Assembly: GCA_963720755.1 (NCBI GenBank)
Contig: CAVRGP010000002.1
Coordinates: 96,001-160,000 of the forward strand
Reading direction: 5' to 3'
Source of the DNA: an uncultured Chloroflexia bacterium
Lineage (GTDB): Bacteria; Chloroflexota; Limnocylindria; Limnocylindrales; CSP1-4
Length of the DNA stretch: 64,000 bases
Shown: positions 28,146-48,185 of the stretch, piece after piece
Position numbering within the stretch: position 1 is the first letter of the stretch
Layout: every line of letters begins with the position of its first letter
Translations under genes and position numbers: made by a program
The notes under the pieces: generated by a model
Seen by the model: the letters and a program-made list of their open reading frames with translations, nothing else
The model's database searches: none
What the model was told of the DNA's origin: nothing

Positions 28146-28221
28146 GGGATGAGATGATAGGGAGAAGATACCCACCTACCAGCGGATCGCGACCCCGCGA
28201 ACGATGTGGAGTGAGCCCAAC

Positions 28222-29340: not shown

Positions 29341-29378
29341 CCCGCCTATCCGGAGGCCCGCCCCGGGTCCGCCCGTGG

Positions 29379-30530: not shown

Positions 30531-30862
30531 TGAGCCCGCAGCGTCGTCGTCCGATGGTCAGGATCGGCGATCTGATCCCGGACGCGGCCCGAGCCCTGGG
30601 CCTGGAAGAAGAGCTGCGCCTGTCCAGGGCGATCGCGACGTTCGAAGCCCTCGTTGCGGAACGGGTCCCGGCGGCGACCGGTGCGTGCCGGGTCGTCAGC
30701 CTCAAGGGATTCACCCTCGATGTCGAGGCCGACCAGCCGATCGTCGCCCAGGAACTTCGCCTGCGGTCGACCGAGTTGCTGGCCGCCTTCGCCGCCGCCC
30801 CGGGCGGCGTCGGCGCACGCGAACTGCGCGTACACGTGCGGCGCGGGGGTCCCCGCGTATAA
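30530..30862 (+). CDS. DciA/DUF721-family protein
   Basis: Position right after recF, size, and pattern RIGDLI...LDVEADQPIVAQELRLRSTELL. Confidence 0.7.
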   Translation: MSPQRRRPMVRIGDLIPDAARALGLEEELRLSRAIATFEALVAERVPAATGACRVVSLKGFTLDVEADQPIVAQELRLRSTELLAAFAAAPGGVGARELRVHVRRGGPRV

Positions 30863-31002: not shown

Positions 31003-33270
31003 ATGGCCGTACGGCTCCACATGACGCTCGGCATCGTTGCCGAACATGACCGACTCGCCGACTCCCCGGATACGCTCATCGTCGTCGAACCGAGCGTCGG
31101 CTCCGTCGCGCGCTCGAAGGGCTACCTGTACCTGCTCGTGACATCGCGGATCTCCTCGCGTCACGCCCTGGAAGCGACCCGCCTGGCCGCCGAGACGATC
31201 CGAAACGAGTATTACTACGACGAGTCAGCCGGGATCCGGGTCTGTCTCCAGAAGGCGATCGGGACGGCAAACAAACGGTTGGCTCACCAGGCGGATCGCC
31301 TCGGACTCAAATCCCCGGATGGCAACGGCCCGATCGGCATCGGCGTCGCCGTCGTCCGCGGCAGCGAGATGTACGTCGCGACGGTCGGGCCGGCCGAGGC
31401 GTACCTGATCCGCCAGGCTCGGCTGTCCACCCTGCCCGACCCGAACCGGGCGAGCGGCCTTCCGTCCGACGCGCTTGAACCCGATGTCTGGCGCGGCGAG
31501 GTGTCGGTCGGCGATTCGCTGGTCTTGATCTCGCCCAACGTCATCGCCAAGCTCGGCGCCGATGAGTTGAAGGACGCGATGCTGACGCTCCACCCGCAGT
31601 CGGCGATGGAGCACCTGCATCAGCGCTTCGTGGCGGCCGACGGGTCCGGCAGTGACGGCGCGATCTCCTTCGAGGCGACCGAGCTGTCGTCGACCAGCCG
31701 GGCGCGGACGCTGGTCCCGGTGCGACCCGCAGAGCCGCTGGCGGGTGCCCCGGACCGGTCACCCATCCCGTTGGCCGACAACGTCCAGGCGGCCGGAATC
31801 GCGGTCACGGCCGCTGCCGGCAATGCGCGAACGGCCGCCGGTGGGGCGGTCGGGCGGATCGTCACCCGCCTCCAGGACCTCATGCCCCAGCGGAAGCAGG
31901 CCTATCGACGCGTCACCCCGTTGACGTCGCGGCGGGAGACCCAACGACGGGCCGCCCTGGCTCTCCTGGCCCTGGTGATCGTCGTGGGTGGCCTGGGCCT
32001 CGCGGTTTTCGCGCTCGGTGGCAACACGCCGCAGCAGGCGATCAGCTCGGTCAATGCCGGACAGCAGGCCCTGGACAAGGCGAAGGCGGACCTGGCCCAG
32101 GTCACCGGACCCGGGATCGACCTCATCGCCGACGACCGCTCCCAGGCGCTCGACCTGCTGACCGACGCCCATGACCAGCTCGATATCGCCGAGCAGGCGA
32201 AGGTCAGCGCCGTCGTGATCGCGCCGCTCCGTGCCCAGACGGTCGCGGGCCTCGATCGCCTGTACGGGGTCGTACCCGTCACGTCGGCGCCCCTGTATAC
32301 GTTCGAGCCCGCCGCCGACGCGGGCCCGACCGACCTGGCCGCGATGGTCCGTGGGCCCGACGGCGCGCCCTACGTCCTCGACCAGTCCACCAAGACCGTG
32401 TATCGGGTCAACCTCAAGAACACTGACGCGACCGTCGTCGTTCGAGCTGGCACCAAGAACAAGGCGGGCACGGTCGCAACGCCCCGGTTCCTGGCAGTGG
32501 GCGGCCAGGATCTCCTGATCCTCGATTCGAAGAACGTGTTGTGGCGATGGCGACCCGCAGACGCAACGGGCAAGGGGACGCTCACAAAGGTCACCGTCCA
32601 GGGAGCGGCCTCGCTGGGCAGCGATGTCGCGGGGATCGACACGTTCCTGCGGCCGGGGACTCGCGGGCTGTACAACCTGTACGTCGTCGATCCGTCCGAA
32701 CAGCAGATCCTGGCCTATTCACCCGCGGCGGACGGGAGTGGCTTCCCGAACAAGCCGTCCCCCTGGCTGGCGACGGCCCGGGATGTGACGTTGATGACAT
32801 CGACCTACGTCGACGGCGACATCTTCGCGACCGACACGGGCGAATTGATCCGGTTCGTGGGCGGCAAGAGCGAGGGCTGGACGCCCAAGGATCCCGGCGA
32901 TGAACTCCTCCGCCCGGCGCCCGAGTACTCGATCGTCACGGGCGTGAGCGCCCGACGTGAGGGCGTGGTCTACGCCTACGACGGACCGAATGCCCGGGTC
33001 GTCGCGATCTCCAAGTCGGACGGCTCGTACGCCGCCCAGTACCGATTGGCCGGCGGAGTGCCGGACTGGTCGGACCTGCGTGCGATGTACGTGGTGGCCG
33101 GGGCGGACGGGGAACCGGACACGGTCGTCTGGGCATCGCCCGACGGGATCAACCAGGCGATCCTTGTGGCCGTCCCCGACATCGCGCCGGTCGCGACCCC
33201 GTCCCCGACCCCCGAACCGAGTCCGACCAAGAAGCCGGCGAAGACGCCGAAGCCCACCAAGAAACCCTGA
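31003..33270 (+). CDS. Hypothetical bitopic protein: PP2C-like N-terminal domain, TM helix, beta-propeller-like extracellular domain
   Basis: N-terminal pattern YYYD...LQKAIGTANKRL...YVATVGPAEAYLIR...GDSLVLIS, central TM, YVLD/LILD/YVVD blade-like repeats and a Pro/Thr/Lys tail. TATAAT at 30858-30863. Confidence 0.7.
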   Translation: MAVRLHMTLGIVAEHDRLADSPDTLIVVEPSVGSVARSKGYLYLLVTSRISSRHALEATRLAAETIRNEYYYDESAGIRVCLQKAIGTANKRLAHQADRLGLKSPDGNGPIGIGVAVVRGSEMYVATVGPAEAYLIRQARLSTLPDPNRASGLPSDALEPDVWRGEVSVGDSLVLISPNVIAKLGADELKDAMLTLHPQSAMEHLHQRFVAADGSGSDGAISFEATELSSTSRARTLVPVRPAEPLAGAPDRSPIPLADNVQAAGIAVTAAAGNARTAAGGAVGRIVTRLQDLMPQRKQAYRRVTPLTSRRETQRRAALALLALVIVVGGLGLAVFALGGNTPQQAISSVNAGQQALDKAKADLAQVTGPGIDLIADDRSQALDLLTDAHDQLDIAEQAKVSAVVIAPLRAQTVAGLDRLYGVVPVTSAPLYTFEPAADAGPTDLAAMVRGPDGAPYVLDQSTKTVYRVNLKNTDATVVVRAGTKNKAGTVATPRFLAVGGQDLLILDSKNVLWRWRPADATGKGTLTKVTVQGAASLGSDVAGIDTFLRPGTRGLYNLYVVDPSEQQILAYSPAADGSGFPNKPSPWLATARDVTLMTSTYVDGDIFATDTGELIRFVGGKSEGWTPKDPGDELLRPAPEYSIVTGVSARREGVVYAYDGPNARVVAISKSDGSYAAQYRLAGGVPDWSDLRAMYVVAGADGEPDTVVWASPDGINQAILVAVPDIAPVATPSPTPEPSPTKKPAKTPKPTKKP

Positions 33271-33903: not shown

Positions 33904-35418
33904 CTAGGTCCCGGCCCGCCGTCCGATGACCCGGGTGAGCTGGGTCGCATCCTGGCCATCGATGTACTCGAGGTCGTAGCGTTCGGCCAGCATCGCCACC
34001 TCGCGTGGATCGACCCGGATCACGTAGACGGGTCTCTGTCCCAGGTTGGTGTCGATGACGTCCGTCAGCGATCCGAGGTCCTCGTCGAGGCGGGTCCGAT
34101 CGTCCACGATCGAGATGTCCGGGCGTTGGCCCAGGACGCGCTGGCGATACCAGAGCGGCGTCGAGTAGCTCCACCAGCTGACGATGACGCTGTCAGGCTC
34201 CATGACCGCCAGGGCGTGGTCGGCCCACGTATCGGCGTCATGCCTGTGACTCATGTCGATCGCAGCGGACCGAGCCGGGATGGCCGCCACGGTCGGCAGC
34301 AGGAGGGCCACCCCGACGACCGCGGCGATGGTCCGCGTCCTGATCGTCGGGGCCGTCGCCCTCTCGCCCATGAACGCACCGATCGCCTCGACGACGACCC
34401 CGGCCAGGATGGCCAGCCAGGTCCAGGCCATGAGCGCCGGCCCGACGTAGTAGCGGGAGATGTCGGCGTTCACGTAGGACGCCGCGAAGAAGCAGGTGAT
34501 CCCCGCCGCGGTGCCGGTCAGCAGCGCATAGCGAGGCTGGCGGATCGCGGTCACCACGAAGGCGACCGGGATGGCCGGCGCGAGGAGTCCGAACTGGGCG
34601 ACGGCGAGACCGACCAGATCGCCGAACTTGCGCGGCAGGTCCCCGAACGGGTCGAGGAGGCTCCCCTGGAACTGTTCGGCGAAGACGATGTACCGGAACC
34701 CGTCCCAGGTATCCGGTCGACCGTACACGAGGGCGGCCCGGAACGGACCGGCTCGCAGCGGCAACTCGAGATAGACGACGACGAGGGTGATCGCGAGCGC
34801 GGCGACGCACCCGGCGACCAGTCGTCCACGGCGCCAGATCCCGGGATCGACGGCCAGGACGTACAACCCGACCGGGACGGCGAGCAGGACGGTCAACGAG
34901 TGATTGCCGAGCGCGAGGGCGAACACGACCGCGGCGCCGATGAGGTACCGGTCGGACCGTTCCGCCCGTCCATCGCCGTCCCACGCGACCAGCAACCAGA
35001 GCAGGATGGCGACGAACGCGAGATGCAGTGAGTGGGCCTCGGCGTGGGTCGCGATCGACCAGGCGATGGGGGTGAGGGCCATGGCGATCCCGGCGGCGAT
35101 CCCGATGGCCAGCCAACCGGTCAGGCGTCGAACGAGGTCGACGCTGACCCCGGCCGCCACCGCCAGGCAGACCGCCGACAGCAGGTTCATCCGAAAGGCC
35201 GGCTCGCCGAACGCCTGGAAGGCGACGGACGCGAGCCAGCCGATCAGCACATAGGTCGGGAACCCGGTCGGATGGGCGGTTCCCATGAGCGGGCCGACCG
35301 CCTGCAGTTCCGCGGTGTCCCAGAAAGCCAACCCGGGGAGCAGGGTGAACCAGGCGGCCGCGAAGGCGACGGCACCGACGAGCATGGCGGCGAGGAGGCG
35401 GATCCGACCCTGGTTCAC
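33904..35418 (-). CDS. DUF2723 (TMEM260-like) GT-C glycosyltransferase
   Basis: WDTAELQ...AHPTGFPTYVLIG signature, AEAHSLH and multiple TMs; GTGA overlap with the upstream gene. Confidence 0.8.
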   Translation of the reverse strand: MNQGRIRLLAAMLVGAVAFAAAWFTLLPGLAFWDTAELQAVGPLMGTAHPTGFPTYVLIGWLASVAFQAFGEPAFRMNLLSAVCLAVAAGVSVDLVRRLTGWLAIGIAAGIAMALTPIAWSIATHAEAHSLHLAFVAILLWLLVAWDGDGRAERSDRYLIGAAVVFALALGNHSLTVLLAVPVGLYVLAVDPGIWRRGRLVAGCVAALAITLVVVYLELPLRAGPFRAALVYGRPDTWDGFRYIVFAEQFQGSLLDPFGDLPRKFGDLVGLAVAQFGLLAPAIPVAFVVTAIRQPRYALLTGTAAGITCFFAASYVNADISRYYVGPALMAWTWLAILAGVVVEAIGAFMGERATAPTIRTRTIAAVVGVALLLPTVAAIPARSAAIDMSHRHDADTWADHALAVMEPDSVIVSWWSYSTPLWYRQRVLGQRPDISIVDDRTRLDEDLGSLTDVIDTNLGQRPVYVIRVDPREVAMLAERYDLEYIDGQDATQLTRVIGRRAGT

Positions 35419-36872
35419 CACCCGAGGATCCGGCTCCACAGCACGCCCCAGGCATTGATCGCGATGGACACGACGATGAGGCTCATTCCCGCAAGCATGC
35501 CCCATCTGTACCGAAGGACCATCCGCTCGAACCCCAGCGCAACGAGGAGCAGCGCGAACGGTGCCGCATCGTTGCTGAAGCGGTAGCCGAACTGGACCCA
35601 TCCCTGACTGAAATGCATCAGGTCGACCAGGACGATGAGCCCCACGGCGATCACCGCGCCTGCCACCAGCCGCCGGCGCCGGAACGCGAACATCGCCGGG
35701 ATGGCCAGCAGGTAGGCCGGACTCGTCAGGAGGACGCTCATCCCGGTGGCGCGCGGGAGGGCGAGGGGGCAGGCGATGTCGAACAGGCCGCGACCGGCCG
35801 AGGGGTCGACGCAGACGGCGACGGGCGCGACCCCCAGGCTGTCCGGGAGCACGGTCGGGAGCAGGTCCGGTGTCCCGAACAGGGCGATCCCGAGGTTCTG
35901 GACGGCGTAGCGGACATCCTCGATCGCCCAATCGGCGTGGTAGCCGAGGGCGGGATAGCCGGCGACCTCGAGCCGGTAGAGGTAGTCGTACGCGGGATTG
36001 GTCAGGTGGCCGGTGCTGACGAGCGTGTAGGCGAGGAGGATCCCGATCGGGATGGCCGCCCCCAGACCGGCCGACCAGGCTCGCCGCCGCCACGCTCCGC
36101 CGGCCCCGACGAAGATGAAGAACGGCGCTCCGAAGACGACGGTGAGCCGTGCCGTGCAGGCCAGGCCGAACAGGAACCCGGCCACGAACTGGCGTCGGTC
36201 GACCCGAAGCCTCGGGCCTGGCCGCGATGCGGCCGTCCCGGCCTCGAGGCCCGTGACGGCGCCCGGGTCGTCGCGGACCGCCAGGCCGATCGCGAGGAAG
36301 GCCAACCCGACAGCGACGATATGGGCCTGATACCAGGTCGTCGCCTGTTGGGCGGTGTACCAGAAGACGGTCCCGAAGGCGAAGAAGACGGTCGTGCCCA
36401 GCCGGACCGCCGTCCCGACCGGGAGCCGGCCGATGGCCCACCAGCAGATCGCGATATCGAACGCTGCGATGACCGTGTAGATGGCCTGGGCGTTGGTGGC
36501 GAGGCCCCACATCGCGACGAACGGCAGCAGGAGGAGCGCCGGGAGGGGTGGGAACGGGAGCAGGCCCCGCGGGATGCCGTCCGAGGTGACGATCGGCAGG
36601 ACGTCCTGGAAGTCGACGTTGCCGAACACGCCGTCGCCGGCGACCGGGTATCGGATCGCGGCGTGGCCCTCGAGGAACGCAGCGGCTTGCCAGACGAAGT
36701 GGTCGTACTGGCGGGCCGAGTAGCTCAGACCGTAGACGGCCAGGGCCGCGAGCACGAGGAGCAGACCGACCACGATCGCCGCCGTTCGGGCGACGTCAGG
36801 GCCGATCGGGATCTCCGTATCGAGGTACGTTTCGGGGCCCGGCGGGCGACCCTGTGCTACGCTCCGATCCAC
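35415..36872 (-). CDS. Polytopic membrane protein, probable GT-C glycosyltransferase (start uncertain)
   Basis: Motifs HFVWQAAAFLEG, PFPPLPALLLLPF and GWVQFGYRFSND; many TMs. Confidence 0.65.
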   Translation of the reverse strand: MDRSVAQGRPPGPETYLDTEIPIGPDVARTAAIVVGLLLVLAALAVYGLSYSARQYDHFVWQAAAFLEGHAAIRYPVAGDGVFGNVDFQDVLPIVTSDGIPRGLLPFPPLPALLLLPFVAMWGLATNAQAIYTVIAAFDIAICWWAIGRLPVGTAVRLGTTVFFAFGTVFWYTAQQATTWYQAHIVAVGLAFLAIGLAVRDDPGAVTGLEAGTAASRPGPRLRVDRRQFVAGFLFGLACTARLTVVFGAPFFIFVGAGGAWRRRAWSAGLGAAIPIGILLAYTLVSTGHLTNPAYDYLYRLEVAGYPALGYHADWAIEDVRYAVQNLGIALFGTPDLLPTVLPDSLGVAPVAVCVDPSAGRGLFDIACPLALPRATGMSVLLTSPAYLLAIPAMFAFRRRRLVAGAVIAVGLIVLVDLMHFSQGWVQFGYRFSNDAAPFALLLVALGFERMVLRYRWGMLAGMSLIVVSIAINAWGVLWSRILGW

Positions 36873-36901
36873 CTTCCACGCTCGTGCAGGAGCCGTTCCC
36901 G

Positions 36902-39900
36902 GTGACTGGCCCCCAGACCCGCGGGACCGAGCGAGACACACGAGCGCCGTTGCCGGTTACCGGGACGCAGGGAGCCGTCGGCGCGGTCCTCGTGGTCCTC
37001 GCGCTCGGACTCGTCCTCCGACTCATCATCGCATACCTCCTTCCCGGGTCCGGATTCGAGGTCGATCTGGGGGCGTTCCGATACTGGGCGTCGAACCTAG
37101 CCTCGGAGGGACTCAACGGGTTCTATGCCCGCGACTTCTTCCACGACTACACGCCCGGCTACCTGTACGTGCTCTGGCTCGTCGGTATCGTCGGCAACGC
37201 GGCTGGGGGCGTCGGTGACCTGATCAAGCTTCCGCCCATCCTGTCCGACCTGGCGATCGGCTGGCTCGCCTGGTCGATGGTCCGGGAGCTTGGTGGGCGG
37301 GACCGCCTGGCCCTCGCCGCGGCCGCGGTGGCGGTGCTCAACCCGATCTCGTGGTTCGACAGCGTGGTGTGGGGTCAGGTCGACTCGTTCGGCGTCGTCT
37401 TCCTCCTGCTCGGGCTGCGCGAGCTGTGGCGCGACCGACCCGAGCGGGCCGCGATATTCACCGTGATCGCCGCGGTCATCAAGCCCCAGCTCGGGATCCT
37501 CATCCCGGTCGTGGCTGTCGTCACCATCAGGCGAGCGCTCTGGCCGGCCGGCGGCCACGGCGACCCGGCCCGGACCGGACGCCCGATCCGCATCCTGACG
37601 ACCGGCCTGGTCGGGTACATCACCGCCGTCGTGGTCTGTTTCCCGTTCGGCCTGTCGGTCATCGAGCTGAGCAGCCAGGCGCCCTATGTCTCGTCCGGGC
37701 TGCTCCAGCAGGTGGCGGTCGCCGCCGGCGGCTACCCGTACCTGACGGTCAATGCCTTCAACCCGTGGGCGCTGGTCCCGTCCGACCTGGGACAGAGCCT
37801 CGCCAACGCGGGCCTGTGGGTATGCGATTACGCGGGGACCGCCCAGGACTGCGGGGCCGGGACCGCGGTGTTCGGCCCGATCCCGGCGGTCGTCATCGGG
37901 ACGACCCTCCTGCTCGCCGCGATGGCCGTGATCCTCGCGGTCATCGCCAGGCGCCCGGACCGGCTGACGTTGCTCGTCGGGATGGCCGTCCTGGCGCTCG
38001 CCTTCTTCGTCGTCCCGACCCGCGTCCATGAGCGCTACGGCTACCCATTCTTCGCGATGGGCGTGATCCTGGCCGCGATCTCCCTGCGCTGGCGGATCGC
38101 CTACATCGTCCTGTCGGTGGCGACCTTCGCCAACATGTATGTCGTCCTGACCACGCTGTACCCCAACAATCCGTCGATCGCGGACTGGCTCGGGCTGGGC
38201 CCGGCGATCCGATCCGAGGCCGGCGTGGTTGCCGTGTCGGTGCTGCACGCGGTGGCGTTCGCGTGGGCGTTCGTCCAGCTGCGTTCGGACGCCCGAGCCC
38301 GGTTGGCGGAGGAACTGGTGGACGCCTCGACCGTCGACGTGCCGGAGCCAACGGACGACATCCCGGCCGGCCTGCCATCGCCGGAGGACCGGGCCCTTCG
38401 ACCGACGCCGGCGTCGAGCTCCCCGGTCGTCGTCGCCACGATGCCCACCTGGACGCCGCGCCCGAGCTTCGAGGAGGTCGGCATCCTCGGCTGGTTCAGG
38501 GCCCGTCTCGCCGACCCGCCGATCCGGCCCGACCGGAGCTCGACCCTGCGCTCGGAAGGCGGTGGACGGCTCGATCGACTCGATCTCTGGATGGTCGTCG
38601 TCCTCGTCATCGGCACGATGCTCCTGCGCACGTATCGGCTGGAACAGCCGTACCAGATGCATTTCGACGAGGTCTACCACGCCCGGACGGCCACCGAGTT
38701 CCTCCAGGATTGGCGGTACGGGCTGTCGCACGATATCTATGAGTGGACCCATCCGCATCTCGCCAAGTACCTGATGGCCGCGGGGATCGTCGCGTGGGGT
38801 GGGGACCATGTCGGCGCCACCAGCGAGCTGGGTGTCCCGGTCGTGGACGCGGTCGTCGAGCCCCGCCGGCTCGACCAACTCTCGCCGGGAGGTCGTGCCG
38901 GCGAACGGCTGTACGTCGCGACCGGCACCGAGGTGCGTGCCTACGACCTGCGCAGTCGGGAACTGGTGGCGGTCATCACCGCCCCGGGAGCGGTCAGCCT
39001 CGCCATCGACGAATCGGCTGATCTCCTCGTCATCGGCGGGTCGGACGGGCAGTTGAGCACGGTCAACCTCTTCGACATCGGCCAGTACAGGCTCGATAGC
39101 GACCTCAAGCCGATCGAGGTCGCCAACGTCGGTCACCCGATCGATCACCTCGTCGTCACTGACGATGGGTCGACCGTGGTCGCCGCGTCCGACGAACGGC
39201 TGACGGCCGTCGATCCGTTCGACGGGACGATCCACGGTTCGATGGATCTTCCTGGCATCGCCGACCTGTCGCCGGGTGGGACAGGATCGGCGATCGTCGC
39301 CAGCGTCGACGATGTCGGCGACCCGACCGCGGCCGCCTCGGCGCTGGCTGCCGTGATGGCGACCAACGGGTCGGCCGATGCCGAGGCGAGCCTCGCGGCC
39401 GACTACGAGACGCGTCTGGCGGGGGCAGCCTCCGGAACCACGGTCGTGCTCGGGGATCCGGGCAGCGGTGATGTGCGGACCGCCCTGGACGACGCGATCG
39501 CGGCCGGTTCGCTGCCGGGTATCTCGGTCGGGAGCGTGTCACGGATCGCCGCTGCGACGTCGGACGGCGTGGCCTTCATCGACCCCGCCCGCGTCTCCCT
39601 GGTCACGACCATCCTGCTCGACGGCGGTGCGCACGGGCTGGCGATGGTGACCGGCCTGGACGATCCGAAGATCTACGCGACGTATGGCGATGCCGCGGCC
39701 CCCGGCTACCAGGTCATCACCGTCGGAGGTGCTCAGGCGGATGCAGGACCGACCGCCGGCAGTTCGCACCCATTACCGGGGCTCGGCTCCCTCGTCACCT
39801 ACGACCCTGCCAGCCAGATGGTCCACATCCTGGGGCACGCCCCGGCCCCCGCCGGCGACGCCTGGACCGTGTACGTGGTCGAACCGCACGGCAACGCGGT

Positions 39901-42298
39901 CTTCGCCGATGCCCGGCTTCCTGATGGGTTCACGCCGTCGGCATGGGGTTCTGACTTCAACCCGGAGTACCCCTCGGAGGATCGGCAGCAGATCCTGGTC
40001 TTCGACCACGCTGGGGCGTCGGCCGCGATCGACGCGGGATCCCACGCCTTCGCCTGGCGGCTGCCCGGCGTCATCGCCGGGGCATTGACCGCCGCCCTGC
40101 TCTACCTCCTGACTCGGATCCTGTTCCGCCGCAGACTCGTGGCCGGCCTCGTGGCGCTCTTCGTCATCGCCGACGGCATGTTCTTCGTCCAATCCCGGAT
40201 CGGCATGAACGATGTCTACGTCGGGCTGTTCATCGTCGCCGCCTACACCCTGTTCGCGATGGTCTGGACAGGTTGGTGGCGAGGCCGCTCCGCGTTCTGG
40301 CTGGCCATGCCGGTCATCGGGGTCCTGCTCGGGCTGGCACTGGCCAGCAAGTGGGTCGCGGCCTATGCGATCGGCGCCCTCGTGCTGCTGATCCTCATCC
40401 GCAGCGCGCTCGGTCGGGTGCTCGCCATCCTCGGCATGATCGGGATCACGACGGTCCTGGGCTACATGGCCATCAGCGTCGCCGCCATCGAGGGCGGGCC
40501 GGACCCCGGGTTCGGGAACCTGACCTTCCTGCTGATCATGATCGCGCTGACTCTGCTGGCCGTCGTCGTGGCCGTCGTCCACCCGATCGCCTGGACCGAC
40601 GACGAGATGCGTTTCGCGGTCGGAGCGCCGGCCGTTCTGGGGGCATTGGTCTTCTTCGGGGCCGTCGGGACGGGTCGGATCGATTCGACGATCGCCATGG
40701 GGCCGCTGACCGTCACGCCGTTGCTCATCGCGATCGCCCTCGGGCTCGGATCGGTGGTGGTCGCCGTCCTGTTCTTCCTCGGTGGACGGATCGGGTTCGG
40801 TCCCCTGGCGTCTCCACCGGCCGACGACGACCCGATCCGGCTGCTCGACCCGCCCGGCACGCCCCCGGATGGCTGGCTCCGGCCCGGCTGGCTGTTGGGC
40901 CTGCCGGTCGTGTGGGTGGCGATCTGCATCCTCATCCTGCCGCTCGCCGTGTATGTCATCACCTACATCCCGTGGGCCCTCATCGAGAACCACCAGATCG
41001 TCCCTGGCTGGCCGCCCGGTCACACCGGCCAGACCCTCCTCGACCTGACGGGGCAGATGTACGGCTATCACAACGGCCTGACGGCGGCGCACCCCGCGTC
41101 CTCGCCCTGGTGGGCCTGGCCGATGAATCTGAAGCCGGTCTGGTTCTACCAGCAGAGTCTGGCGGCCGGAACGTCGGCCGCGCTGTACGACGCCGGCAGC
41201 CTGGTCATCTGGTGGATGAGCATCCCGGCGATGGCGTTCGTCGCCTACATGGCGTTCAAGCGGCGGAGTCTGGCCCTGACCCTCATCGCGATCGGGTTCG
41301 CCGCCCAGTGGATCCCATGGGCGCGGATCGATCGGGCCGCCTTCCAGTACCACTACTACACGTCGTTGCCGTTCCTGGTGATGGCCCTGGCCTACTTCGC
41401 CGCCGAGCTGTGGCACGGCGCCTCACGGCACACCTGGGCGCTGGCCCGGGCGGCCGGTGCCATCGCGATCGTCGCCCCGGCCGGCCTGTGGATCCTCGAC
41501 CGGCCCCTCTGTGCGATCGTCGGCGTCGACTCGGTCAACCCGGGCTCAGCCGCCTGCCCAGCCGTGATCCCGGACTTCGTTCTCACGGCCAGGACCGCCG
41601 GCCTGGCCCTGGTCGTCGGGATCGGTCTGATCATCATCATCCGGCGGTTCCTCGCGTTCGATCAGGCTGACGATGGCAGTGGCGACGGGGGCCAGCTCAC
41701 GGAGGCGTTCCGGTCACTCGTCTGGACCGGCCTGGCCGTCATCGCCGGATTGATCGTCGTGGCCTTCCTGCCCGACACCCCGATCCTGGTCCTGACCAGC
41801 GTCCCGGTGGAGCCGATCGCGCTGATCGTCGCGATCCCGCTCGGGTTCCTCGGCCTGCAGGTGTTCGCGTCAAGAGACGCACATCGGTTCGTGGTCGGTC
41901 TCGGCGTCGCGGTCGTTGCCTGGTTCGCCATCCTGTACCCGAACATCAGCGCCCTGCCGCTGCCCGCTGCCGTCGTCGCGGCGTACCAGGGCATCCTGCC
42001 GACCTATCTGTACGCCTTCCAGTTCCCGGTCAGCACGGTCACCCGGGCGACGGACACCCCCCTCCTGACGCCCATGCTCCTGGTCCTGCTGATCGCCCTG
42101 ACAGTGACCTGCCTGGTGGTCGCCTATTCCGCCTGGGTCTGGCGACTGACGCTGGCCGAAGCGAGAGCCGCGTCGGTGCCGCCGACGGATCCGACGCGTC
42201 CGCCGGCCCGGACGACCTGGCCCGGACCGGCAACGCCTGAGGGACGGCGGCCCGGAAGTCCGGCGGCAGCTGCCCGCCGGCCGCGAGACGGCGGATGA
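36902..42298 (+). CDS. Giant GT-C fusion: mannosyltransferase-like domain plus PMT-family protein O-mannosyltransferase with a large extracytoplasmic insert (true stop probably 42240)
   Basis: N-domain: DYTPGYLY, DSVVWGQVDS, KPQ, HERY. PMT motifs: FDEVYH, THPHLAK, FAWRLPG, SRIGMNDVY, SKW, HPASSPWWAWP, YHYY. Confidence 0.82.
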   Translation: MTGPQTRGTERDTRAPLPVTGTQGAVGAVLVVLALGLVLRLIIAYLLPGSGFEVDLGAFRYWASNLASEGLNGFYARDFFHDYTPGYLYVLWLVGIVGNAAGGVGDLIKLPPILSDLAIGWLAWSMVRELGGRDRLALAAAAVAVLNPISWFDSVVWGQVDSFGVVFLLLGLRELWRDRPERAAIFTVIAAVIKPQLGILIPVVAVVTIRRALWPAGGHGDPARTGRPIRILTTGLVGYITAVVVCFPFGLSVIELSSQAPYVSSGLLQQVAVAAGGYPYLTVNAFNPWALVPSDLGQSLANAGLWVCDYAGTAQDCGAGTAVFGPIPAVVIGTTLLLAAMAVILAVIARRPDRLTLLVGMAVLALAFFVVPTRVHERYGYPFFAMGVILAAISLRWRIAYIVLSVATFANMYVVLTTLYPNNPSIADWLGLGPAIRSEAGVVAVSVLHAVAFAWAFVQLRSDARARLAEELVDASTVDVPEPTDDIPAGLPSPEDRALRPTPASSSPVVVATMPTWTPRPSFEEVGILGWFRARLADPPIRPDRSSTLRSEGGGRLDRLDLWMVVVLVIGTMLLRTYRLEQPYQMHFDEVYHARTATEFLQDWRYGLSHDIYEWTHPHLAKYLMAAGIVAWGGDHVGATSELGVPVVDAVVEPRRLDQLSPGGRAGERLYVATGTEVRAYDLRSRELVAVITAPGAVSLAIDESADLLVIGGSDGQLSTVNLFDIGQYRLDSDLKPIEVANVGHPIDHLVVTDDGSTVVAASDERLTAVDPFDGTIHGSMDLPGIADLSPGGTGSAIVASVDDVGDPTAAASALAAVMATNGSADAEASLAADYETRLAGAASGTTVVLGDPGSGDVRTALDDAIAAGSLPGISVGSVSRIAAATSDGVAFIDPARVSLVTTILLDGGAHGLAMVTGLDDPKIYATYGDAAAPGYQVITVGGAQADAGPTAGSSHPLPGLGSLVTYDPASQMVHILGHAPAPAGDAWTVYVVEPHGNAVFADARLPDGFTPSAWGSDFNPEYPSEDRQQILVFDHAGASAAIDAGSHAFAWRLPGVIAGALTAALLYLLTRILFRRRLVAGLVALFVIADGMFFVQSRIGMNDVYVGLFIVAAYTLFAMVWTGWWRGRSAFWLAMPVIGVLLGLALASKWVAAYAIGALVLLILIRSALGRVLAILGMIGITTVLGYMAISVAAIEGGPDPGFGNLTFLLIMIALTLLAVVVAVVHPIAWTDDEMRFAVGAPAVLGALVFFGAVGTGRIDSTIAMGPLTVTPLLIAIALGLGSVVVAVLFFLGGRIGFGPLASPPADDDPIRLLDPPGTPPDGWLRPGWLLGLPVVWVAICILILPLAVYVITYIPWALIENHQIVPGWPPGHTGQTLLDLTGQMYGYHNGLTAAHPASSPWWAWPMNLKPVWFYQQSLAAGTSAALYDAGSLVIWWMSIPAMAFVAYMAFKRRSLALTLIAIGFAAQWIPWARIDRAAFQYHYYTSLPFLVMALAYFAAELWHGASRHTWALARAAGAIAIVAPAGLWILDRPLCAIVGVDSVNPGSAACPAVIPDFVLTARTAGLALVVGIGLIIIIRRFLAFDQADDGSGDGGQLTEAFRSLVWTGLAVIAGLIVVAFLPDTPILVLTSVPVEPIALIVAIPLGFLGLQVFASRDAHRFVVGLGVAVVAWFAILYPNISALPLPAAVVAAYQGILPTYLYAFQFPVSTVTRATDTPLLTPMLLVLLIALTVTCLVVAYSAWVWRLTLAEARAASVPPTDPTRPPARTTWPGPATPEGRRPGSPAAAARRPRDGG

Positions 42299-43392
42299 CG
42301 AAGCCGTAGTAGTCCTCCACCTTGGCCGTCACCCGCGGCCAGCTGAATTCCTCGGCCCGGACGCGTCCGGCGGCGCCCATCTGCGCCCGAAGGGCCGGGT
42401 CGTCGAGCAGGCGCCCGATCGCGCTGGCGAGCTCCTCGGGTTCCCGGGGCGGGACGAGCAGTCCCTCGCGGCCGCGTCGGACGACGCCCTTGTACCCGTG
42501 GATGTCCGAGGCGACGATCGGGGCGCCGGCGGCCATCGCCTCGAGCAGGACGATCCCGAACGACTCGCGACCCGTCGCCGGCGCGACGTACACGTCGGCG
42601 GTCCGGAAGAGCTGCGCCTTCTCGGCGTCGGTGACGCGTCCCAGGAACTCGACCGCCTGCAGACCGCGGGTCGCGACGTACCGGCGCGCCTCCCGCTCCT
42701 GCGGGCCGGAACCGACGACCAGGAGGCGATCGCGGTAATCCGGCCTTGCGGAGGATCCGATGTGCCTTCAGCAGGTCGAGCAGCCCTTTGCGTGGCTCGT
42801 GGCGACCGACGAACAGGACATTGGGCGTGCCGTCCTGCCAGCGGGCGACCGGCACCGCTCCCGCGAAGCGGGGGATATCGACGCCGTTGGGGATGACCTT
42901 GTAGTCGCCGGGGAAGAACCGGTCGATGAAGTGCCGCGCGGCGGCACTCACGGCGATGCGGCCGTGGAGCTTGGCCGCATGTCCCTTCATGACCCGGCTG
43001 CCCAGCTCGTAGGACGGAGAGAAGCCGGCATACGCGTGGAACGTGGCGATGTTGACACTCTTCGATTCGCGCAGCAGGAAGAGCGACAGGAAGGGGACGA
43101 ACGGTTCGTGGAGATGGAGGACATCGAAGCGTTCACGCGCGAGCAGCTCGCGGACCTGGCCGAGATACCGCGGTGAGAAGGTCAGCGTCCCGATCGAGCC
43201 ATTGAGCGGCACGCTGAAGCCCACGCCGATGCGCAGGATGTCACCCTCGGAGGCGCGTTGCGGGCCGTGGCTGGCAGTGATGATGCGGACGTCGTGGCCG
43301 GCCAGCCGGAGGTTCTCGTACAGGTGACGGACATGCTGGGCGACCCCGCCCGCCTCCGGGTAGATGTACGGACAGACCAGGCCGATCTTCAT
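42124..43392 (-). CDS. pimA: PimA-like GT4 phosphatidylinositol alpha-mannosyltransferase, with two compensating 1-bp frameshifts in this sequence
   Basis: N-terminus MKIGLVCPY..GGVAQHV, then LHLHEP, ATFH, GRIAVS, IPNGVD and EPRKG. The C-terminal ESFGIVLLEAMAAG motif lies in a shifted frame after about 42738. Confidence 0.78.
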   Translation of the reverse strand: MKIGLVCPYIYPEAGGVAQHVRHLYENLRLAGHDVRIITASHGPQRASEGDILRIGVGFSVPLNGSIGTLTFSPRYLGQVRELLARERFDVLHLHEPFVPFLSLFLLRESKSVNIATFHAYAGFSPSYELGSRVMKGHAAKLHGRIAVSAAARHFIDRFFPGDYKVIPNGVDIPRFAGAVPVARWQDGTPNVLFVGRHEPRKGLLDLLKAHRILRKAGLPRSPPGRRFRPAGAGGAPVRRDPRSAGGRVPGTRHRRREGAALPDRRRVRRAGDGSRVVRDRPARGDGRRRPDRRLGHPRVQGRRPTRPRGTARPAPGTRGARQRDRAPARRPGPSGADGRRRTRPGRGIQLAAGDGQGGGLLRLRHPPSRGRRAAAAGLPGRRPSGVAGPGQVVRAGGRVGSVGGTDAALASASVSRQTQAE

Positions 43393-44210
43393 CGACTCGG
43401 CCCATCCCCGGGACCGGGCGCCATGAACCGGGGAGGTCGCTGACGACCGCCCGGATAGCCATGATCGCGACCGGTCCCGTCGCGTCGGATCCGCCCGATG
43501 ACCTCGTCGCGGGCGTCGCGGCTGCGTTTCCGGAGCTGCTGTCCGAACGTGCCGAGCTGGCCGACCGTGGCGTGGAACGTGCCGCCATGCTCGGTCGTGC
43601 CGGCGAGGATCGCGCGCCGAAGGTCGTCGGCGTCCTGTCCGGCGAACGTCGTCCAGCCCGTCCCGATGGCCTCGAGTGCGTGGGCATCGCTGTTGCCGAG
43701 GTGGGCGAGACCGTGATCGTCGGCGAAGCGCACGACCCGACGATGGAGTGGCCGGCCGAGGCTGGTCGGGTTGAACGTCTCGAGTCCATCGGGGTGGGCG
43801 CCCGGGTCAGGATCATCGAGGAGCCGACGAAGGGTCCAGGCCTGTGCGCACAGCGGATATGGGACGAGCGGGTGCGCCGGGATCGCCAGCCCGCCGGCAT
43901 CGTGCACGGCGAGGATCGTCGTCCGCATCGATCGGTACGGGCGGATCGGGCGGTCCAGGAAGAGCCCCAGCAGATGACCGCCAAGGGTCGTGATCTCCTC
44001 GCCGACCACGACGTCGACCCGGAGTCCACGGTCCCGGGCCATCGACCGAGCCGCGACGGCGGCATCGATCCGCTCATGGTCGGCGATCGCGATGACGTCG
44101 AGGTCGGTCTGCCCCTCGACGTGCTCGAGGATCTCCTGGATCCCGGCCGTGCCGTCGCTGGCGAGCGTATGGATGTGGAGGTCGGCCCGACCGAGGCGAT
44201 CGATGGTCAT
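43389..44210 (-). CDS. PHP-domain phosphoesterase
   Basis: Motifs DLHIHTLASDG, IADHE, GEEI, GHLL, AHP and NSDAH; start and stop overlap neighbours on both sides. Confidence 0.88.
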   Translation of the reverse strand: MTIDRLGRADLHIHTLASDGTAGIQEILEHVEGQTDLDVIAIADHERIDAAVAARSMARDRGLRVDVVVGEEITTLGGHLLGLFLDRPIRPYRSMRTTILAVHDAGGLAIPAHPLVPYPLCAQAWTLRRLLDDPDPGAHPDGLETFNPTSLGRPLHRRVVRFADDHGLAHLGNSDAHALEAIGTGWTTFAGQDADDLRRAILAGTTEHGGTFHATVGQLGTFGQQLRKRSRDARDEVIGRIRRDGTGRDHGYPGGRQRPPRFMAPGPGDGPSR

Positions 44211-45160
44211 GCCGCGACCCCTGCGTCGGCGAGGCCCGGGTCGGATCCAGCCTCGAGATCCGGCCAGATCGGGAAGAAGATGGCCCACCATTGGTCGGGC
44301 GCGTCGGCGATGAGGTCCTCGAACGCGGCCGCGAGATTGAGCATCGTCGCCATCACCCGCTCACGGCGAGTCCCGGACGTCGGCACGTCGATCGGGAGGA
44401 TCCGACCCCGGTAGGAGCCGGACCCGGCCCGTCGAACGGCCATCCCGTAGACCGGCACCCCCGCTTCGACCGCCAGGATGGCCGGACCCATCGGCAGCAT
44501 GGCCGGGGACCCGAAGAGCGCGATCGGCGTCCCGCCGCCGGTCAGGTCCCGGTCGCCGACGAGACCCACCGGGATGCCCTCGCGCAGGGCGTCGATGAGT
44601 GCCCGTCGAGCTTCCCGCAGACTGACGAGGCGGACCCCGTGCACGCCTCGGGTCCGTTCGAAGTACGCCTGGACCCCGGGATCGTCCACGGTCTCCATCG
44701 GGATCACCGTCGAGCCAACGCGAAGCGCGAAGTAGACGACCGGCAGTTCAAGCGACCCGAAGTGAAGACCGACGAACAGGACGGCCTGGCCCGGCTTGAC
44801 CGCCTCCTCGATGAGCTCAGGCGTATCCAGCTGCAGGCGTTCGTCCACGTATTCCCGCGTGATCGCCGGCGTCCGGGCGACCTCGAGGTAGTAGCGGGCA
44901 GCGTGGCGGAAGGACGATCTGACGAGCCGCTCGAGTGCCTTGGGGTCGGTCGCCGCCGCCCGGACCCGAGCACTTCCGCGACCGGAACCCGCCAGCGACC
45001 GACAGACGCGCCGAAGGTTCCGTCGTGCCTGGTCGGCGCGGCGCGGTGCCAGCCGGTACCAGACGTCACCGGCCAGATCGGCGACGCGCATCAGCGGTCG
45101 TTCGGGCAGCCGGCAGGCGAGCCACGACATGGCCAGCAGGAGGCGGCCCCGGACGGTCAC
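44207..45160 (-). CDS. PatA-like (lipid A/PIM) acyltransferase, copy 2
   Basis: Motifs ARYYLE, LHFGSLE (HX4E), LVGDRDL and PDQW. Confidence 0.82.
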   Translation of the reverse strand: MTVRGRLLLAMSWLACRLPERPLMRVADLAGDVWYRLAPRRADQARRNLRRVCRSLAGSGRGSARVRAAATDPKALERLVRSSFRHAARYYLEVARTPAITREYVDERLQLDTPELIEEAVKPGQAVLFVGLHFGSLELPVVYFALRVGSTVIPMETVDDPGVQAYFERTRGVHGVRLVSLREARRALIDALREGIPVGLVGDRDLTGGGTPIALFGSPAMLPMGPAILAVEAGVPVYGMAVRRAGSGSYRGRILPIDVPTSGTRRERVMATMLNLAAAFEDLIADAPDQWWAIFFPIWPDLEAGSDPGLADAGVAA

Positions 45161-46242
45161 CCGGGTGTCGCCTCGGTCGATCCGTCGACCCCCGTGGGTG
45201 CCGTGGAGGCGGTCGCAGACGCGTCGCCGGGTGTCCGGCCCGGTCCCGGGTCGGGTACGCCCGACTGCATCATCCTGGCGCGGACTTCGAGTTCCGCCGC
45301 TTCGCCGGGGTCGTCCGGCCACATCGGCTTGAAGCTGTACCACTGATATGGGGCGACCCGGATCGCATCGGCCAGTGCATCGGCCATCGCCTGGCTGGCG
45401 CGCTGCAGCTCGGCCGGGTCGCTCGACGGCACGTCGATCGGATCGCGGAACTCGAGGGCGAACGTGCCGTCAGCCTTGCGGTGGATAGCGACCGGCAGGA
45501 TCCGCGACCCCGTCTTGGCCGCGAGTGTCGCCGGTCCAGCCGGCAGCGTCGTCCAGGCATCGAACAGGCGCACCGGGATGCCATCGCTGCGATAGCCCCA
45601 GTCGATCAGCAGACCGAGCATCTCGCGGCGTCGGAGCACCCCGAAGATCGCCCGAAGGTTGCGCCATGGAACGAGGTCGAAACCCCACGCCGCGCGTTGC
45701 CGGCGGAGCAGCTCGAACAGCTCCGGGAATGACGAGTCATCGGCCACGACACTGACCTTCAGGCCGAGTCGCGCGACCGCCGCCGCGATCGCTTCGTTGC
45801 TGCCGATATGAGCGGCCGTGAAGATGAGCCCGCCGGTATTCGATCCATCGCGGATCCGTCGCAGGTCGTCCTCCAGCCGGTCGAGGTCACCGGCCAGCCG
45901 CCCGACCTCGTCCGGCGTCAGCGATGGCAGGCGCATCAGTTCGACGAGGTACCGGCCGTATTCGCGATAGGCATGAAGCGCGAGCGCACGCACCCGACGA
46001 TCGTCGGGCGAGATCCCCAGGACGTGCCCGAAATTGTCGTTCGACCACCGTCGTCGTGCCGGCCAGGCGAGGTACGACCCCTGTGCCAGGAGCCCGACGA
46101 CGACGGCTGCGGGCCCGGCCGGCAGGACGCGCAGGAGCCACGCCGTCGCCCGATAGGCAACGACGGCCGTCCGTTCGACGATCCTCGGCCGAGCCCCGCC
46201 TCGGCGGTGTGGCGCCTCGAGCCGTTTGTCGGCGCTGGTCAC
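45157..46242 (-). CDS. PatA-like (lipid A/PIM) acyltransferase, copy 1
   Basis: Motifs [28 protein letters not shown] and [11 protein letters not shown]. Confidence 0.82.
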
Positions 46243-47477
46243 TTCGCGGCGGTGGCCACCTTGGCCTTGGTGCCGGCCATCCGCTTGACGGTCTTCTTGA
46301 CCGGCGCTTCCGTGCCGACCAGGGTTTCGTTGTCATCGCCGCGGATGAACGCCTCGACCCGGTTGAACGCGATGTCGTCGTGGATCTGGTGCGGCGGGCT
46401 CTTCATGAAGTAGCTGGACGGCGCGACCAGCGTGCCGGTCAGACCGCGATCGAGTCCGAGCTTGAGGCAGCGGATCGCGTCGGTGATGACGCCGGCGCTG
46501 TTGGGGCTGTCCCAGACCTCGAGCTTGAGTTCCGCGTTGAGCGGCACGTCGCCATAGGTCGTGCCTTCCATCCGGATGTAGCACCACTTCCGATCGAGCA
46601 GCCACGGCACGTGGTCGCTCGGGCCGACGTGGACATCGTCGGGATCCATCTCGTAGTCGAGCATGGACGTGACCGCGTTCGTCTTGCTGATCTTCTTGGA
46701 CTCGAGTCGTTCCCGCTCGAGCATGTTGAGGAAGTCCGTGTTGCCACCGAAGTTGAGCTGGTACGTCCGATCGAGCCGGACGCCACGGTCCATGAACAGG
46801 CGGGTCAGCACGCGATGGCTGATCGTCGCGCCGACCTGGCTCTTGATATCGTCGCCGATGACCGGCAGCCCGGCCGCTGCGAATCGGCGCTGCCAGTAGG
46901 GCTCGCGGCCGATGAACACCGGGATGGCGTTGACGAAGGCGACGCCCGCCTCGAGGGCCTGCTCGACGTACCACTTGGTGGCCTGCTCGCTCCCGACCGG
47001 GAGGTAGCTGACCATGACGTCGACCTGGCGCTCCTTGAGGATGCCGACGATGTCGGCCGTGGGGCCGGGCGCCTTCTCGATGACCTGGCTGAGGTACTTG
47101 CCGAGGCCGTCGTGGGTCATCCCGCGCTCGACCGGCACGCCCATGGGCTGGACCTGCTGGAAGACGTACGTGTTGTTCGGCTTCGTGTAGATCGCCTCGG
47201 ACAGGTCCTTGCCGACCTTGTTCTTGTCGATGTCGAATGCCGCGACGAACTCGATGTCCTTGACGTGGTAGCCGCCGAGGTCGACGTGCATCAGCCCGGG
47301 GACGAAGTCGTCCTTCTTGGCGTTCTCGTAGTAGTAGCGGCCCTGGACCAGGCTGCTGGCGCAGTTGCCGACCCCGACGATGGCGACCCGGATCTTGCCG
47401 TCGCCGCGCCGGCCCGCGCCGGCCCAGGTGTTGGTCGGCTTGGCGCCGTCCTTGCCGTTCTTGCCGTTGGTGCTCAC
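46239..47477 (-). CDS. ino1: myo-Inositol-1-phosphate synthase (actinobacterial/archaeal type)
   Basis: Motifs [48 protein letters not shown] and WDSPNSAG. Confidence 0.96.
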
Positions 47478-47492
47478 GATGGTCCGTTCTCC

Positions 47493-48185
47493 TTACTTGG
47501 ACGGGATGTGGGAGGCCGACTTGGCCTGGCTGCGGACGTGGAGGATCCGCTGGATGACGGTGATGATGGAACCGATGGTGATGATGCCCAGGGCGAGGAA
47601 CAGGGCATCCACGCCGAGCGGGGTGGCGAGACCGCCAGCACCTGCCCCATCGGGGATATCCCAGCTGGCGCCGAGGATCCCGGCGAGGACGAGGCCGAGA
47701 CTGAGGATGATCAGGCGCACTTCCCGTGGCATGACGCCGACGGCCGCCATCCCGGTCCCGGCCGTGAAGCCGAGCCCGTCGGACTTGGCCCGTGTATAGC
47801 TGACCATGACGGCCGATCCCATGGCCGCAGCGGCCCATAGCGTGCCGTCGGCGACGCCGACCGCCTGCAGTCCGGCGACGATCCCGATGTAGACGACCAC
47901 TTCACCGGCCCGATCGAACACGCTGTCCATGAACGCGCCGAGGTTGCTGACCTTGCCGGTCGCCCGGGCCAGCGTGCCATCGAACATGTCGAAGACGCCG
48001 CCGAGGAACACGACGAGGCCGCCGAGGAGCCAGAGCTGCGCGGCGACGAGGACCGCACCGACGACCGTGATCCCGAAGCCGATGAGCGTCAGCCCGTCCG
48101 GCGTCAGGCCGAGGCGGCCCATCCCGAGCGCGATCGGCTCGAAGACCTTCTTGATCCGGCCACGGGACTCGTTGGAGATCGTCAT
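47493..48185 (-). CDS. pgsA: CDP-alcohol phosphatidyltransferase, probable phosphatidylinositol-phosphate synthase
   Basis: Motif DMFDGTLAR...GAFMDSVFDR, plus MVSYTRAK; adjacent to ino1. Confidence 0.85.
   Translation of the reverse strand: MTISNESRGRIKKVFEPIALGMGRLGLTPDGLTLIGFGITVVGAVLVAAQLWLLGGLVVFLGGVFDMFDGTLARATGKVSNLGAFMDSVFDRAGEVVVYIGIVAGLQAVGVADGTLWAAAAMGSAVMVSYTRAKSDGLGFTAGTGMAAVGVMPREVRLIILSLGLVLAGILGASWDIPDGAGAGGLATPLGVDALFLALGIITIGSIITVIQRILHVRSQAKSASHIPSK

Follow-up and report, generated by a model that had tools for sequence, protein, structure and literature searches.

A 64,000-nt stretch of an uncultured Limnocylindria genome (GCA_963720755.1, contig CAVRGP010000002.1) was found to carry a single gene (36902..42240) encoding a protein of ~1,780 aa in which two glycosyltransferases of the GT-C fold are fused into one chain. 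This stretch is referred to here as the window, and coordinates are positions within it, on the plus strand unless marked. An N-terminal GT-C module (N-module) of the ALG6/PimE type, as assigned from its modelled fold, is joined to a protein O-mannosyltransferase (PMT) module whose first outer loop is occupied by a predicted beta-propeller. Judged from sequence, both modules retain their predicted catalytic residues. We propose that the chain may both initiate and extend O-glycans on exported Ser/Thr/Pro-rich proteins, a reading to which we give about an even chance.

Reality and distribution of the fusion gene

The stop-free frame spans 36854-42298 (1814 codons), and the database gene call (P0002) starts at 36902 and gives 1798 aa; that the stored frame continues as far as 42298 is probably due to an indel near 42180. 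A second frame terminates at 42240, the end proposed in an earlier note on this DNA, and its tail motif ends 74 of 119 homologs among the matches listed. Since this alternative frame has a homolog-like tail, and one contig of public run X1 is without 8 bases near 42180 (42178-42184), position 42240 is probably the true end of the gene. The earlier note had further described an N-terminal GT-C domain and a PMT in one gene, and this description holds: the modules share a single frame, homologs are single open reading frames (ORFs), and the junctions are free of gaps. The linker and the first insert junction are covered by an X1 contig (38048-38948) and the second insert junction by contigs of runs X1 (39379-40551) and X2 (39629-40868), the contigs coming from four public runs of a single study that is possibly the source sample itself. 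No RNA record was listed as containing the sequence. The fusion is thus a real gene, an assembly artefact being ruled out by full-length homologs, frames shared across genomes and the gapless public-run contigs.

The fusion is a class-wide gene of soil and freshwater Chloroflexota. The best 120 database matches comprised the window's own protein and 119 homologs, which are 1490-1862 aa long, share 60-80% identity and align over 68-99% of the query, so that the full-length relatives for which the earlier note had called are plentiful; the named members among those listed belong to Chloroflexota or Ca. Limnocylindrales. All 80 loci listed from the Genome Taxonomy Database (GTDB) are collinear relatives, with titles mostly of Chloroflexota, Chloroflexia or Limnocylindria. 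All motifs lie in one ORF in 55 of these loci, nine run off the locus end and 16 do neither, comprising one intact gene with variant motifs and 15 sets of collinear pieces whose frames shift at scattered sites. The break falls in or near the linker in seven loci, and in six the first frame continues 294-389 residues beyond the HERY motif, as an indel would produce; in locus L085 the first frame stops at the linker and the true gene may be split there.

A draw of 300 Chloroflexota genomes included 34 of the window's class, belonging to three families (f1, 16; f2, 3; f3, 15), and the N-module and first PMT loop share an open frame in all 34, as judged from matching frame lengths. The shared frame in genome G074 is only 902 aa, and genome G001 (75% complete) gave a weak match only. 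Members of f2 have streamlined genomes (1.0-1.4 Mb) and retain a version of ~1,400 aa; that so large a protein is kept in genomes of this size suggests that it matters for the envelope. Outside the class, these queries detected no fused copy in the genomes searched, where N-module matches were mostly in frames of 400-800 aa. One f3 genome carries a second propeller-containing copy (G094:C4:876042-880281, L140), apparently frameshifted and without the usual neighbours, and three longer family members, P0266 (2390 aa), P0263 (2012 aa) and P0168 (2092 aa), have additional unannotated regions in the linker, N-module or C-terminus.

The PMT module

The PMT module is split into two parts by the insert. 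The first part (38564..38803) holds the first transmembrane (TM) helix, the DE motif (D605/E606, 38666-38671, within FDEVYH at 38663-38680) and an HP-x-x-K helix, and the main part (40040..42016) carries R1069, R1115-x4-D1120, KW 1166-67, H1413 and R1494-x2-F1497. The Pfam PMT profile was matched in the same split fashion, by 38546-38800 (profile positions 3-55, E 0.008) and by residues 1064-1182 (profile 81-198, E 1e-11; 45.3 bits, passing the cut-off of 22.7), and PMT_4TMC was passed by residues 1395-1547 (48.2 bits, cut-off 32.4). The actinobacterial Pmt equivalog NF058602 was matched at 47.4 bits, below its cut-off of 800. The MIR domain, a lumenal domain of eukaryotic PMTs, gave no Pfam match, and the model contains no such domain before PMT_4TMC.

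A model of residues 571-1770 (predicted local distance difference test, pLDDT, 87.7) matched yeast Pmt2 (6p2r) with a VIA Z of 35.6 (root-mean-square deviation, rmsd, 3.6; 427 aligned residues, reaching residue 1721), followed by Pmt4 (Z 34.3), ALG12 (27.8) and ArnT (27.2). The modelled fold is therefore nearer to Pmt than to other GT-C enzymes. Foldseek on this 1200-aa model was dominated by propellers, with no PMT among the matches listed. Additional TM helices had been placed at the C-terminus in the earlier note; one (42071..42160, residues 1740-1769) does follow the PMT core, whereas most of the others are insertions inside it, since the Pmt2 match extends to residue 1721. These inserted helices lie at ~40406-40789 (~residues 1185-1312) and ~41588-41866 (~1579-1671) and are shorter or absent in f2.

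The residues described as essential in mycobacterial PMT, D74, D176, R441 and Y444 (PMC12331936), have putative counterparts in D605, D1120, R1494 and F1497. D605 and D1120 align directly with yeast Pmt1 and Pmt4, and the Rx2F pair was assigned by the motif given in that paper. Conservation among the close homologs is near complete, with D605/E606 and D1120 in 119/119 and R1494 and F1497 in 118/119.

The propeller insert

The insert (38804..40039) interrupts the first outer loop of the PMT module, with the HP-x-x-K helix before it and the WR motif after it. A soluble stretch of about 410 aa had been noted between two PMT segments that normally adjoin, and the boundaries agree with this, the AWG segment ending at 38803 and FAWRLPG starting at 40049. 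The HP-to-WR spacing is 436 residues, as compared with <40 in 43 of 55 measurable related fusions (median 28; insert-less relatives have 23-28 residues across this gap), from which an insert of ~410 aa is deduced. Its beta-propeller-like character, also anticipated, was recovered in the model as a seven-bladed YncE/YVTN/WD40-like ring (blades counted from the DSSP strand string, with the ring closed by the first strand). The insert model matched YncE (3vgz) with a VIA Z of 29.9 (rmsd 2.5, 279 aligned), and Foldseek on the insert-containing model gave WD40 and YVTN matches; an ESM Atlas comparison was YncE-like (0.81-0.83) and is taken as a lead only.

Nested inside blade 4 is an alpha/beta subdomain of ~85 aa (39281..39538) that is homologous by profile to the N-terminal pedestal of class-B penicillin-binding proteins (PBPs), presumably the region labelled the 'head'. 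A 74-sequence profile (A5) searched against PDB sequences matched 4ovd (E 4e-9), 4ye5 (2.8e-4) and SpoVD 7rcz (4.8e-3). The subdomain had no Pfam match, and its profile failed to retrieve the window genome's own PBPs, though five transpeptidase-family matches exist there. It was present in 13/13 f1, 0/10 f2 and 0/9 f3 loci, and this confinement to f1 among the loci compared points to a later, dispensable addition.

The N-terminal GT-C module

The N-module (36968..38299, residues 39-482) was modelled by AlphaFold2 with a pLDDT of 95.8. Its best structural match was ALG6 (VIA Z 28.1, rmsd 2.9, 386 aligned), followed by ALG3 (26.7), Gpi14 (23.4), the inactive scaffold PIG-U (21.7) and PimE (19.7), as compared with ~16 for PMTs and at most 7.7 for unrelated folds; Foldseek ranked the candidates similarly. 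By modelled fold the N-module is a member of the ALG6/ALG3/PIG-M/PimE structural group (GT-CA), as would be expected from the earlier suggestion of a GT-C domain at this end. Sequence profiles were less telling. Of the family scans proposed in the note, those for PMT succeeded and that for GT87 fell short on this module (E 0.0017; 18.6 bits, cut-off 25), although some homologs (P0190, P0252, P0279 and P0280) pass the same cut-off. No Alg6_Alg8 (GT57) match was found in the fusion protein in the Pfam scan, although a few homologs score 25-31 bits; the NCBIfam scan had no match for the N-module or the insert, and sequence-only PDB searches with the N-module returned nothing meaningful. The ESM Atlas placed residues 39-650 with GT87/Alg6-like clusters at 0.98.

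The predicted catalytic base is D71 (37064..37066), situated in the model at the tip of the first juxtamembrane helix (residues 69-85), a position held by D58 in PimE and D69 in ALG6 according to PMC12041525 and PMC12653191. It is present in 116/116 close homologs and 88/88 rows of alignment A2 that have no gap there, and in 106/106 cross-phylum fusions. The predicted donor-phosphate ligands K210 (37481) and H392 (38027), whose equivalence is deduced from position, follow in the same order as PimE K195 and H321/H322 and as the later His site of ALG6, His378 (PMC10859629). By motif order and helix position, D71/K210/H392 would thus be equivalent to PimE D58/K195/H322. The 106 fusions, from several phyla, were drawn from 120 listed matches and selected by the WGQxD, HERY and FDE motifs, whose columns are therefore invariant by construction; D71, W78, D98, Y99 and K210 were not used in the selection and are nonetheless invariant in all 106, for which reason the N-module is predicted to be an active enzyme. 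A poorly conserved, Pro-rich and acidic linker (38300..38563), ending in a conserved PxRxDRS-x-EGGG motif, connects it to the PMT module.

Related fusions in other phyla

A plasmid search yielded one stand-alone N-module homolog, a 412-aa protein of Bacillus. Used as a query for longer proteins, this homolog gave at least 120 matches, and 108 of the 120 listed have the PMT DE motif. The taxa named among the matches listed are Firmicutes, Christensenellales, Clostridiales, Eremiobacterota, Sericytochromatia, Limnocylindria and one labelled Actinomycetota, and one cluster contains Paenibacillus pinisoli proteins. An insert after the DE motif is absent in 72 of the 108, amounts to at least 300 residues in 19 and is not measurable in 17. 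From this division and the taxa concerned, the double GT-C fusion is a multi-phylum family, a breadth that the earlier note had not mentioned; within it, the propeller form occurs chiefly, though possibly not exclusively, in Limnocylindria. Some family members have F5/8-C and CBM4/9 domains ahead of the DE motif. The N-module family is also fused, in proteins lacking a PMT, to YfhO/DUF6541-type membrane proteins and NPCBM (P0291, P0365, P0325, P0370, P0373 and P0379), so that it repeatedly appears as a partner of GT-C-like enzymes other than PMT.

Gene neighbourhood and donor synthase

A GT2 of the polyprenyl-phosphate sugar synthase type is encoded at the fusion locus in 9/10 loci of the f1 genus g1, 3/3 other f1, 10/10 f2 and 9/10 f3 loci. 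The GT2 of the window genome lies elsewhere (C6:138114, 59% identity); the gene usually follows divergent GT-C genes. Thirty-nine Firmicutes-type loci were fetched, and in the 21 of at least 8.5 kb the fusion is accompanied by GT2 in 20 and GtrA in 18. Since GT2 recurs across phyla and genes for phosphatidylinositol mannosides (PIMs) had no match within 6 kb in any of these 21 loci, the unit shared between phyla would be the fusion plus one donor synthase. ArnC, GtrB and DPMS are similarly close to the GT2, for which no NCBIfam cut-off is reached; for the GT2 accompanying Firmicutes-type fusions, PgfS scores highest among the NCBIfam models, though below its cut-off. The single GtrA-family match of the window genome lies away from the fusion locus (G000:C2:18852-19199), and a stand-alone N-module paralog in the same genome is truncated by a contig end (G000:C6:283887-284386).

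Convergent with the fusion is a PIM-like operon (42124..48185, minus strand), comprising genes for a phosphatidylinositol phosphate (PIP) synthase-like (pgsA-like) protein, an inositol-3-P synthase (Ino1), two PatA-like acyltransferases, a PHP phosphatase and a PimA-like GT4. This operon, an example outside Actinobacteria, adjoins the fusion in 10/10 same-genus loci and occurs in 5/5 streamlined f2 genomes of 1.1-1.4 Mb examined, ~19 kb from the fusion in the three in which both share a contig. Its GT4 gene (42124-43392, minus strand) is frameshifted in the window near 42742. One base at 42742 is missing from contigs of three public runs, and in 10/10 same-genus loci the two halves are contiguous, so that the break is an assembly error and the gene is no pseudogene.

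Upstream of the fusion, a divergent gene (35415-36860, minus strand; 7/10 same-genus loci) encodes a membrane protein that shows GT-C-like motifs, is matched by neither Pfam nor NCBIfam and is a candidate glycolipid transferase. Beyond it lies a TMEM260-like O-mannosyltransferase homolog (33904-~35400, minus strand; Pfam E 6e-23), found in 10/10 same-genus loci and without a match in ten f2 loci. A conserved 755-aa protein (31003-33270), syntenic across the class, has a weakly PP2C-like N-terminal part, one TM helix, a probable outer repeat or propeller region and a Pro/Thr/Ser-rich tail, and is a candidate acceptor. In most class members examined the glycosylation locus adjoins the replication-origin cluster, here represented by dnaN-recF-DUF721-like genes (28204-30862). 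Across the genome, as read from crude gene calls, Pro/Ser/Thr-rich stretches occur in 52/356 proteins with one or two hydrophobic segments, 26/1857 with none (odds ratio 12) and 9/380 polytopic proteins, so that candidate acceptors are present.

Proposed function and alternatives

In the proposed scheme, the linked GT2 would make a polyprenyl-phosphate sugar donor, probably of mannose, from which the PMT module would place the first sugar on Ser/Thr of exported proteins beneath the propeller; the ALG6/PimE-type N-module would then add the next sugar, and the propeller, inserted next to the PMT active site, would by prediction control access of the acceptor or keep it in place. Initiation and elongation by one chain, which the earlier note had proposed together with substrate recognition by the propeller-like domain, is supported by the precedent of PimE and by the fit with a single linked donor synthase. 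PimE (GT87) extends O-mannose chains on mycobacterial mannoproteins from the same donor, according to a review (PMC12757957), and the streptococcal Pgf system is described as combining one GT2 with two GT-C enzymes that act on Ser/Thr-rich regions (10.1101/2024.05.05.592596). When the N-module was predicted in complex with the PMT core, the score was 0.49 (runs 0.49, 0.56 and 0.00; best control 0.00), with contact agreement of at least 0% and partner pLDDT of at least 79. Of 157 solved complexes used for calibration, 18 scored at or below 0.60, as did both passing mismatches; this prediction lends weak support and would shift the balance between readings little.

Several points weigh against initiation and elongation on proteins. 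The solved enzymes nearest to the N-module (ALG6, ALG3, Gpi14 and PimE) were studied with lipid-linked glycans as acceptors, and throughout the class the fusion has a PIM-like operon beside it. The equivalent mycobacterial partner is described in a preprint (bioRxiv 10.64898/2026.07.15.738315) as non-catalytic, and the mapping of D71/K210/H392 onto PimE relies on motif order and helix position rather than residue-level superposition. Other GT-C genes of the genome, the divergent one and the TMEM260-like one, could perform either step. Mannose is an assumption, the sugar specificity of the GT2 not being readable from sequence. Finally, propeller identity is ~0.4-0.65, as compared with 0.75-0.9 at the two active sites, and such low conservation fits a cap or spacer equally well as a specific receptor.

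The lipid-linked acceptors of its closest folds suggest that the N-module could instead be an active glycolipid transferase, similar to PimE or the first GPI mannosyltransferase (GPI-MT-I), that extends the PIMs of the neighbouring operon and was fused through the shared lipid-phosphate sugar. The constancy of the operon (10/10 same-genus loci; 5/5 streamlined genomes) is in keeping with this. We nevertheless hold it to be unlikely, as fusions with the same invariant residues occur in Firmicutes-type loci with PIM-gene matches in 0/21 within 6 kb, the operon is ~19 kb distant in f2, and the stand-alone GT-C next door (7/10 same-genus loci) could be the glycolipid enzyme. It is also conceivable, and in our view quite unlikely, that the N-module is mainly a structural partner, comparable to ML2687c/Rv0051 or yeast Pmt2, forming an internal pseudo-dimer that positions the acceptor or lipid while only the PMT transfers. 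The same preprint presents Pmt with a non-catalytic GT87-like protein and a propeller, supported by pulldown, and cites a Paenibacillus GT39-GT87 protein as the same organisation; PIG-U among the fold matches (Z 21.7) and the weak docking support point the same way. For a pseudo-enzyme, however, the invariance of D71, D98, K210 and their neighbours across phyla and in stand-alone homologs would be unexpected, and PIG-U itself has lost the motif (PMC12653191).

Three further schemes carry less weight. ALG6 and ALG3 elongate lipid-linked oligosaccharides, and with both modules tethered the N-module might build a short oligosaccharide on a lipid carrier for the PMT module to transfer en bloc to protein. 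We regard this as improbable: the residues that serve the monosaccharide donor in Pmt are conserved in the PMT module, a single GT2 is linked, and the annotated loci showed no initiating phosphoglycosyl transferase. No case of en bloc transfer by a GT39 enzyme is known to us. An acceptor such as a wall polymer or lipid, as in ArnT or GtrABC-type systems, would agree with the GT-C, GT2 and GtrA layout of Firmicutes-type loci and with the ArnT match (Z 27.2), yet the matches to Pmt2 and Pmt4 are clearly stronger, the PMT_4TMC cut-off is exceeded and sets of GT2 and GT-C enzymes of the Pgf type are described as glycosylating proteins, so that we consider it highly improbable. Least to be expected is a scheme in which the N-module would extend the operon's PIM and the PMT would attach that glycan, or the whole glycolipid, to proteins chosen by the propeller and the PBP-head-like piece; if true, a single bacterial chain would parallel GPI-type assembly and attachment, and would have been retained in genomes as small as 1.1 Mb. 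Of the readings considered, initiation and elongation of O-glycans on exported proteins is the one that we retain.

Comparison with known systems

Literature searches found no paper on a propeller-containing double GT-C chain and nothing relevant on Chloroflexi PIMs, Chloroflexi GT39 O-mannosylation or bacterial Gpi18-like mannosyltransferases. Neither 'mannosyl' nor 'inositol' occurs in the main text of a 2026 Limnocylindria genomics paper (PMC13212565). On fused GT39/GT87 proteins of Paenibacillus only the above preprint was found relevant; it likens GT39 enzymes of Paenibacillus fused to GT87 (V9WAU2) to a one-piece version of the mycobacterial Pmt complex, and its main text does not contain 'Chloroflex'. 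The Paenibacillus-type double GT-C fusion and the three-part logic are therefore already in print. Apparently new, with none found in the literature searches, are a single chain with an internal propeller, an apparently active second module and a nested PBP-head-like piece.

Among general relatives, the GT39 PMTs (yeast Pmt1/2/4 and actinobacterial Pmt) share with the window protein the fold, the Pfam PMT and PMT_4TMC domains and the DE, Rx4D and Rx2F/Y motifs; the window protein differs in having no MIR, a soluble domain in the first loop and extra TM helices. ALG6/ALG8 (GT57), ALG3, Gpi14/PIG-M and PimE (GT87) share their fold with the N-module, whose Asp in the first loop and subsequent Lys and His are predicted to occupy equivalent positions; the N-module is 12-15% identical to these enzymes, reaches no Pfam cut-off and is fused to a PMT. 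Streptococcus mutans Pgf (PgfS, a GT2, with PgfM1 and PgfM2) shares the layout of one GT2 and two GT-C enzymes and the extracellular action on Ser/Thr-rich regions, although PgfM1/M2 are described as two individual proteins of the YfhO type and GalNAc as the sugar transferred.

The Paenibacillus and Clostridia GT39-GT87 fusions (V9WAU2, by citation in the preprint; WP_243644335.1 of P. pinisoli, named 'glycosyltransferase family 39 protein' in RefSeq) have the same module order, a linked GT2 and the shared motifs WGQxD, HERY, FDExYH-x-RTA and HP-x-x-K. They have no propeller after the HP-x-x-K helix, the distance from FDE to RxxxxD being 90-96 residues as compared with ~510 in the window protein, and in several members an F5/8-C (discoidin) domain precedes the DE motif and a CBM4/9 stands at the N-terminus, neither of which is present in the window protein. 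Their loci have an adjacent GtrA and no PIM operon, in contrast to the PIM-like operon of the window locus. The built-in propeller is thus what sets the Limnocylindria version apart from other double fusions. The varied soluble domains at different sites around one DE-motif loop (propeller, discoidin and nested PBP-head-like piece) form a natural series for studies of acceptor selection. The gene also predicts O-glycoproteins, and together with its neighbours PIM-like glycolipids, in Limnocylindria, an abundant uncultured class.

The mycobacterial complex, as proposed in the preprint, consists of Pmt (GT39), the GT87-like ML2687c/Rv0051, the propeller protein ML0810c/Rv3212 and ML1065, and its description includes a DivIVA-like scaffold subunit. 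Matched by description, the window protein has the same three kinds of part, namely a PMT, another GT-C module belonging to the GT87/ALG6 class and a propeller on the outer side near the DE motif. In the mycobacterial case these are separate subunits, the GT87-like protein that was pulled down with Pmt is without catalytic residues, and an eight-bladed propeller was modelled over the Pmt active site; here they form one chain, the N-module keeps its predicted catalytic residues and the predicted propeller is seven-bladed and lies inside loop 1. The chain may accordingly serve as a natural Rosetta stone for the bacterial O-mannosylation machine of several subunits that was put forward in 2026, from which it differs in a second GT-C that looks catalytically intact. 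It raises the testable question of whether the partner of a PMT is a scaffold or an elongating enzyme, and the test is practical because cultivated Paenibacillus carry the propeller-less form.

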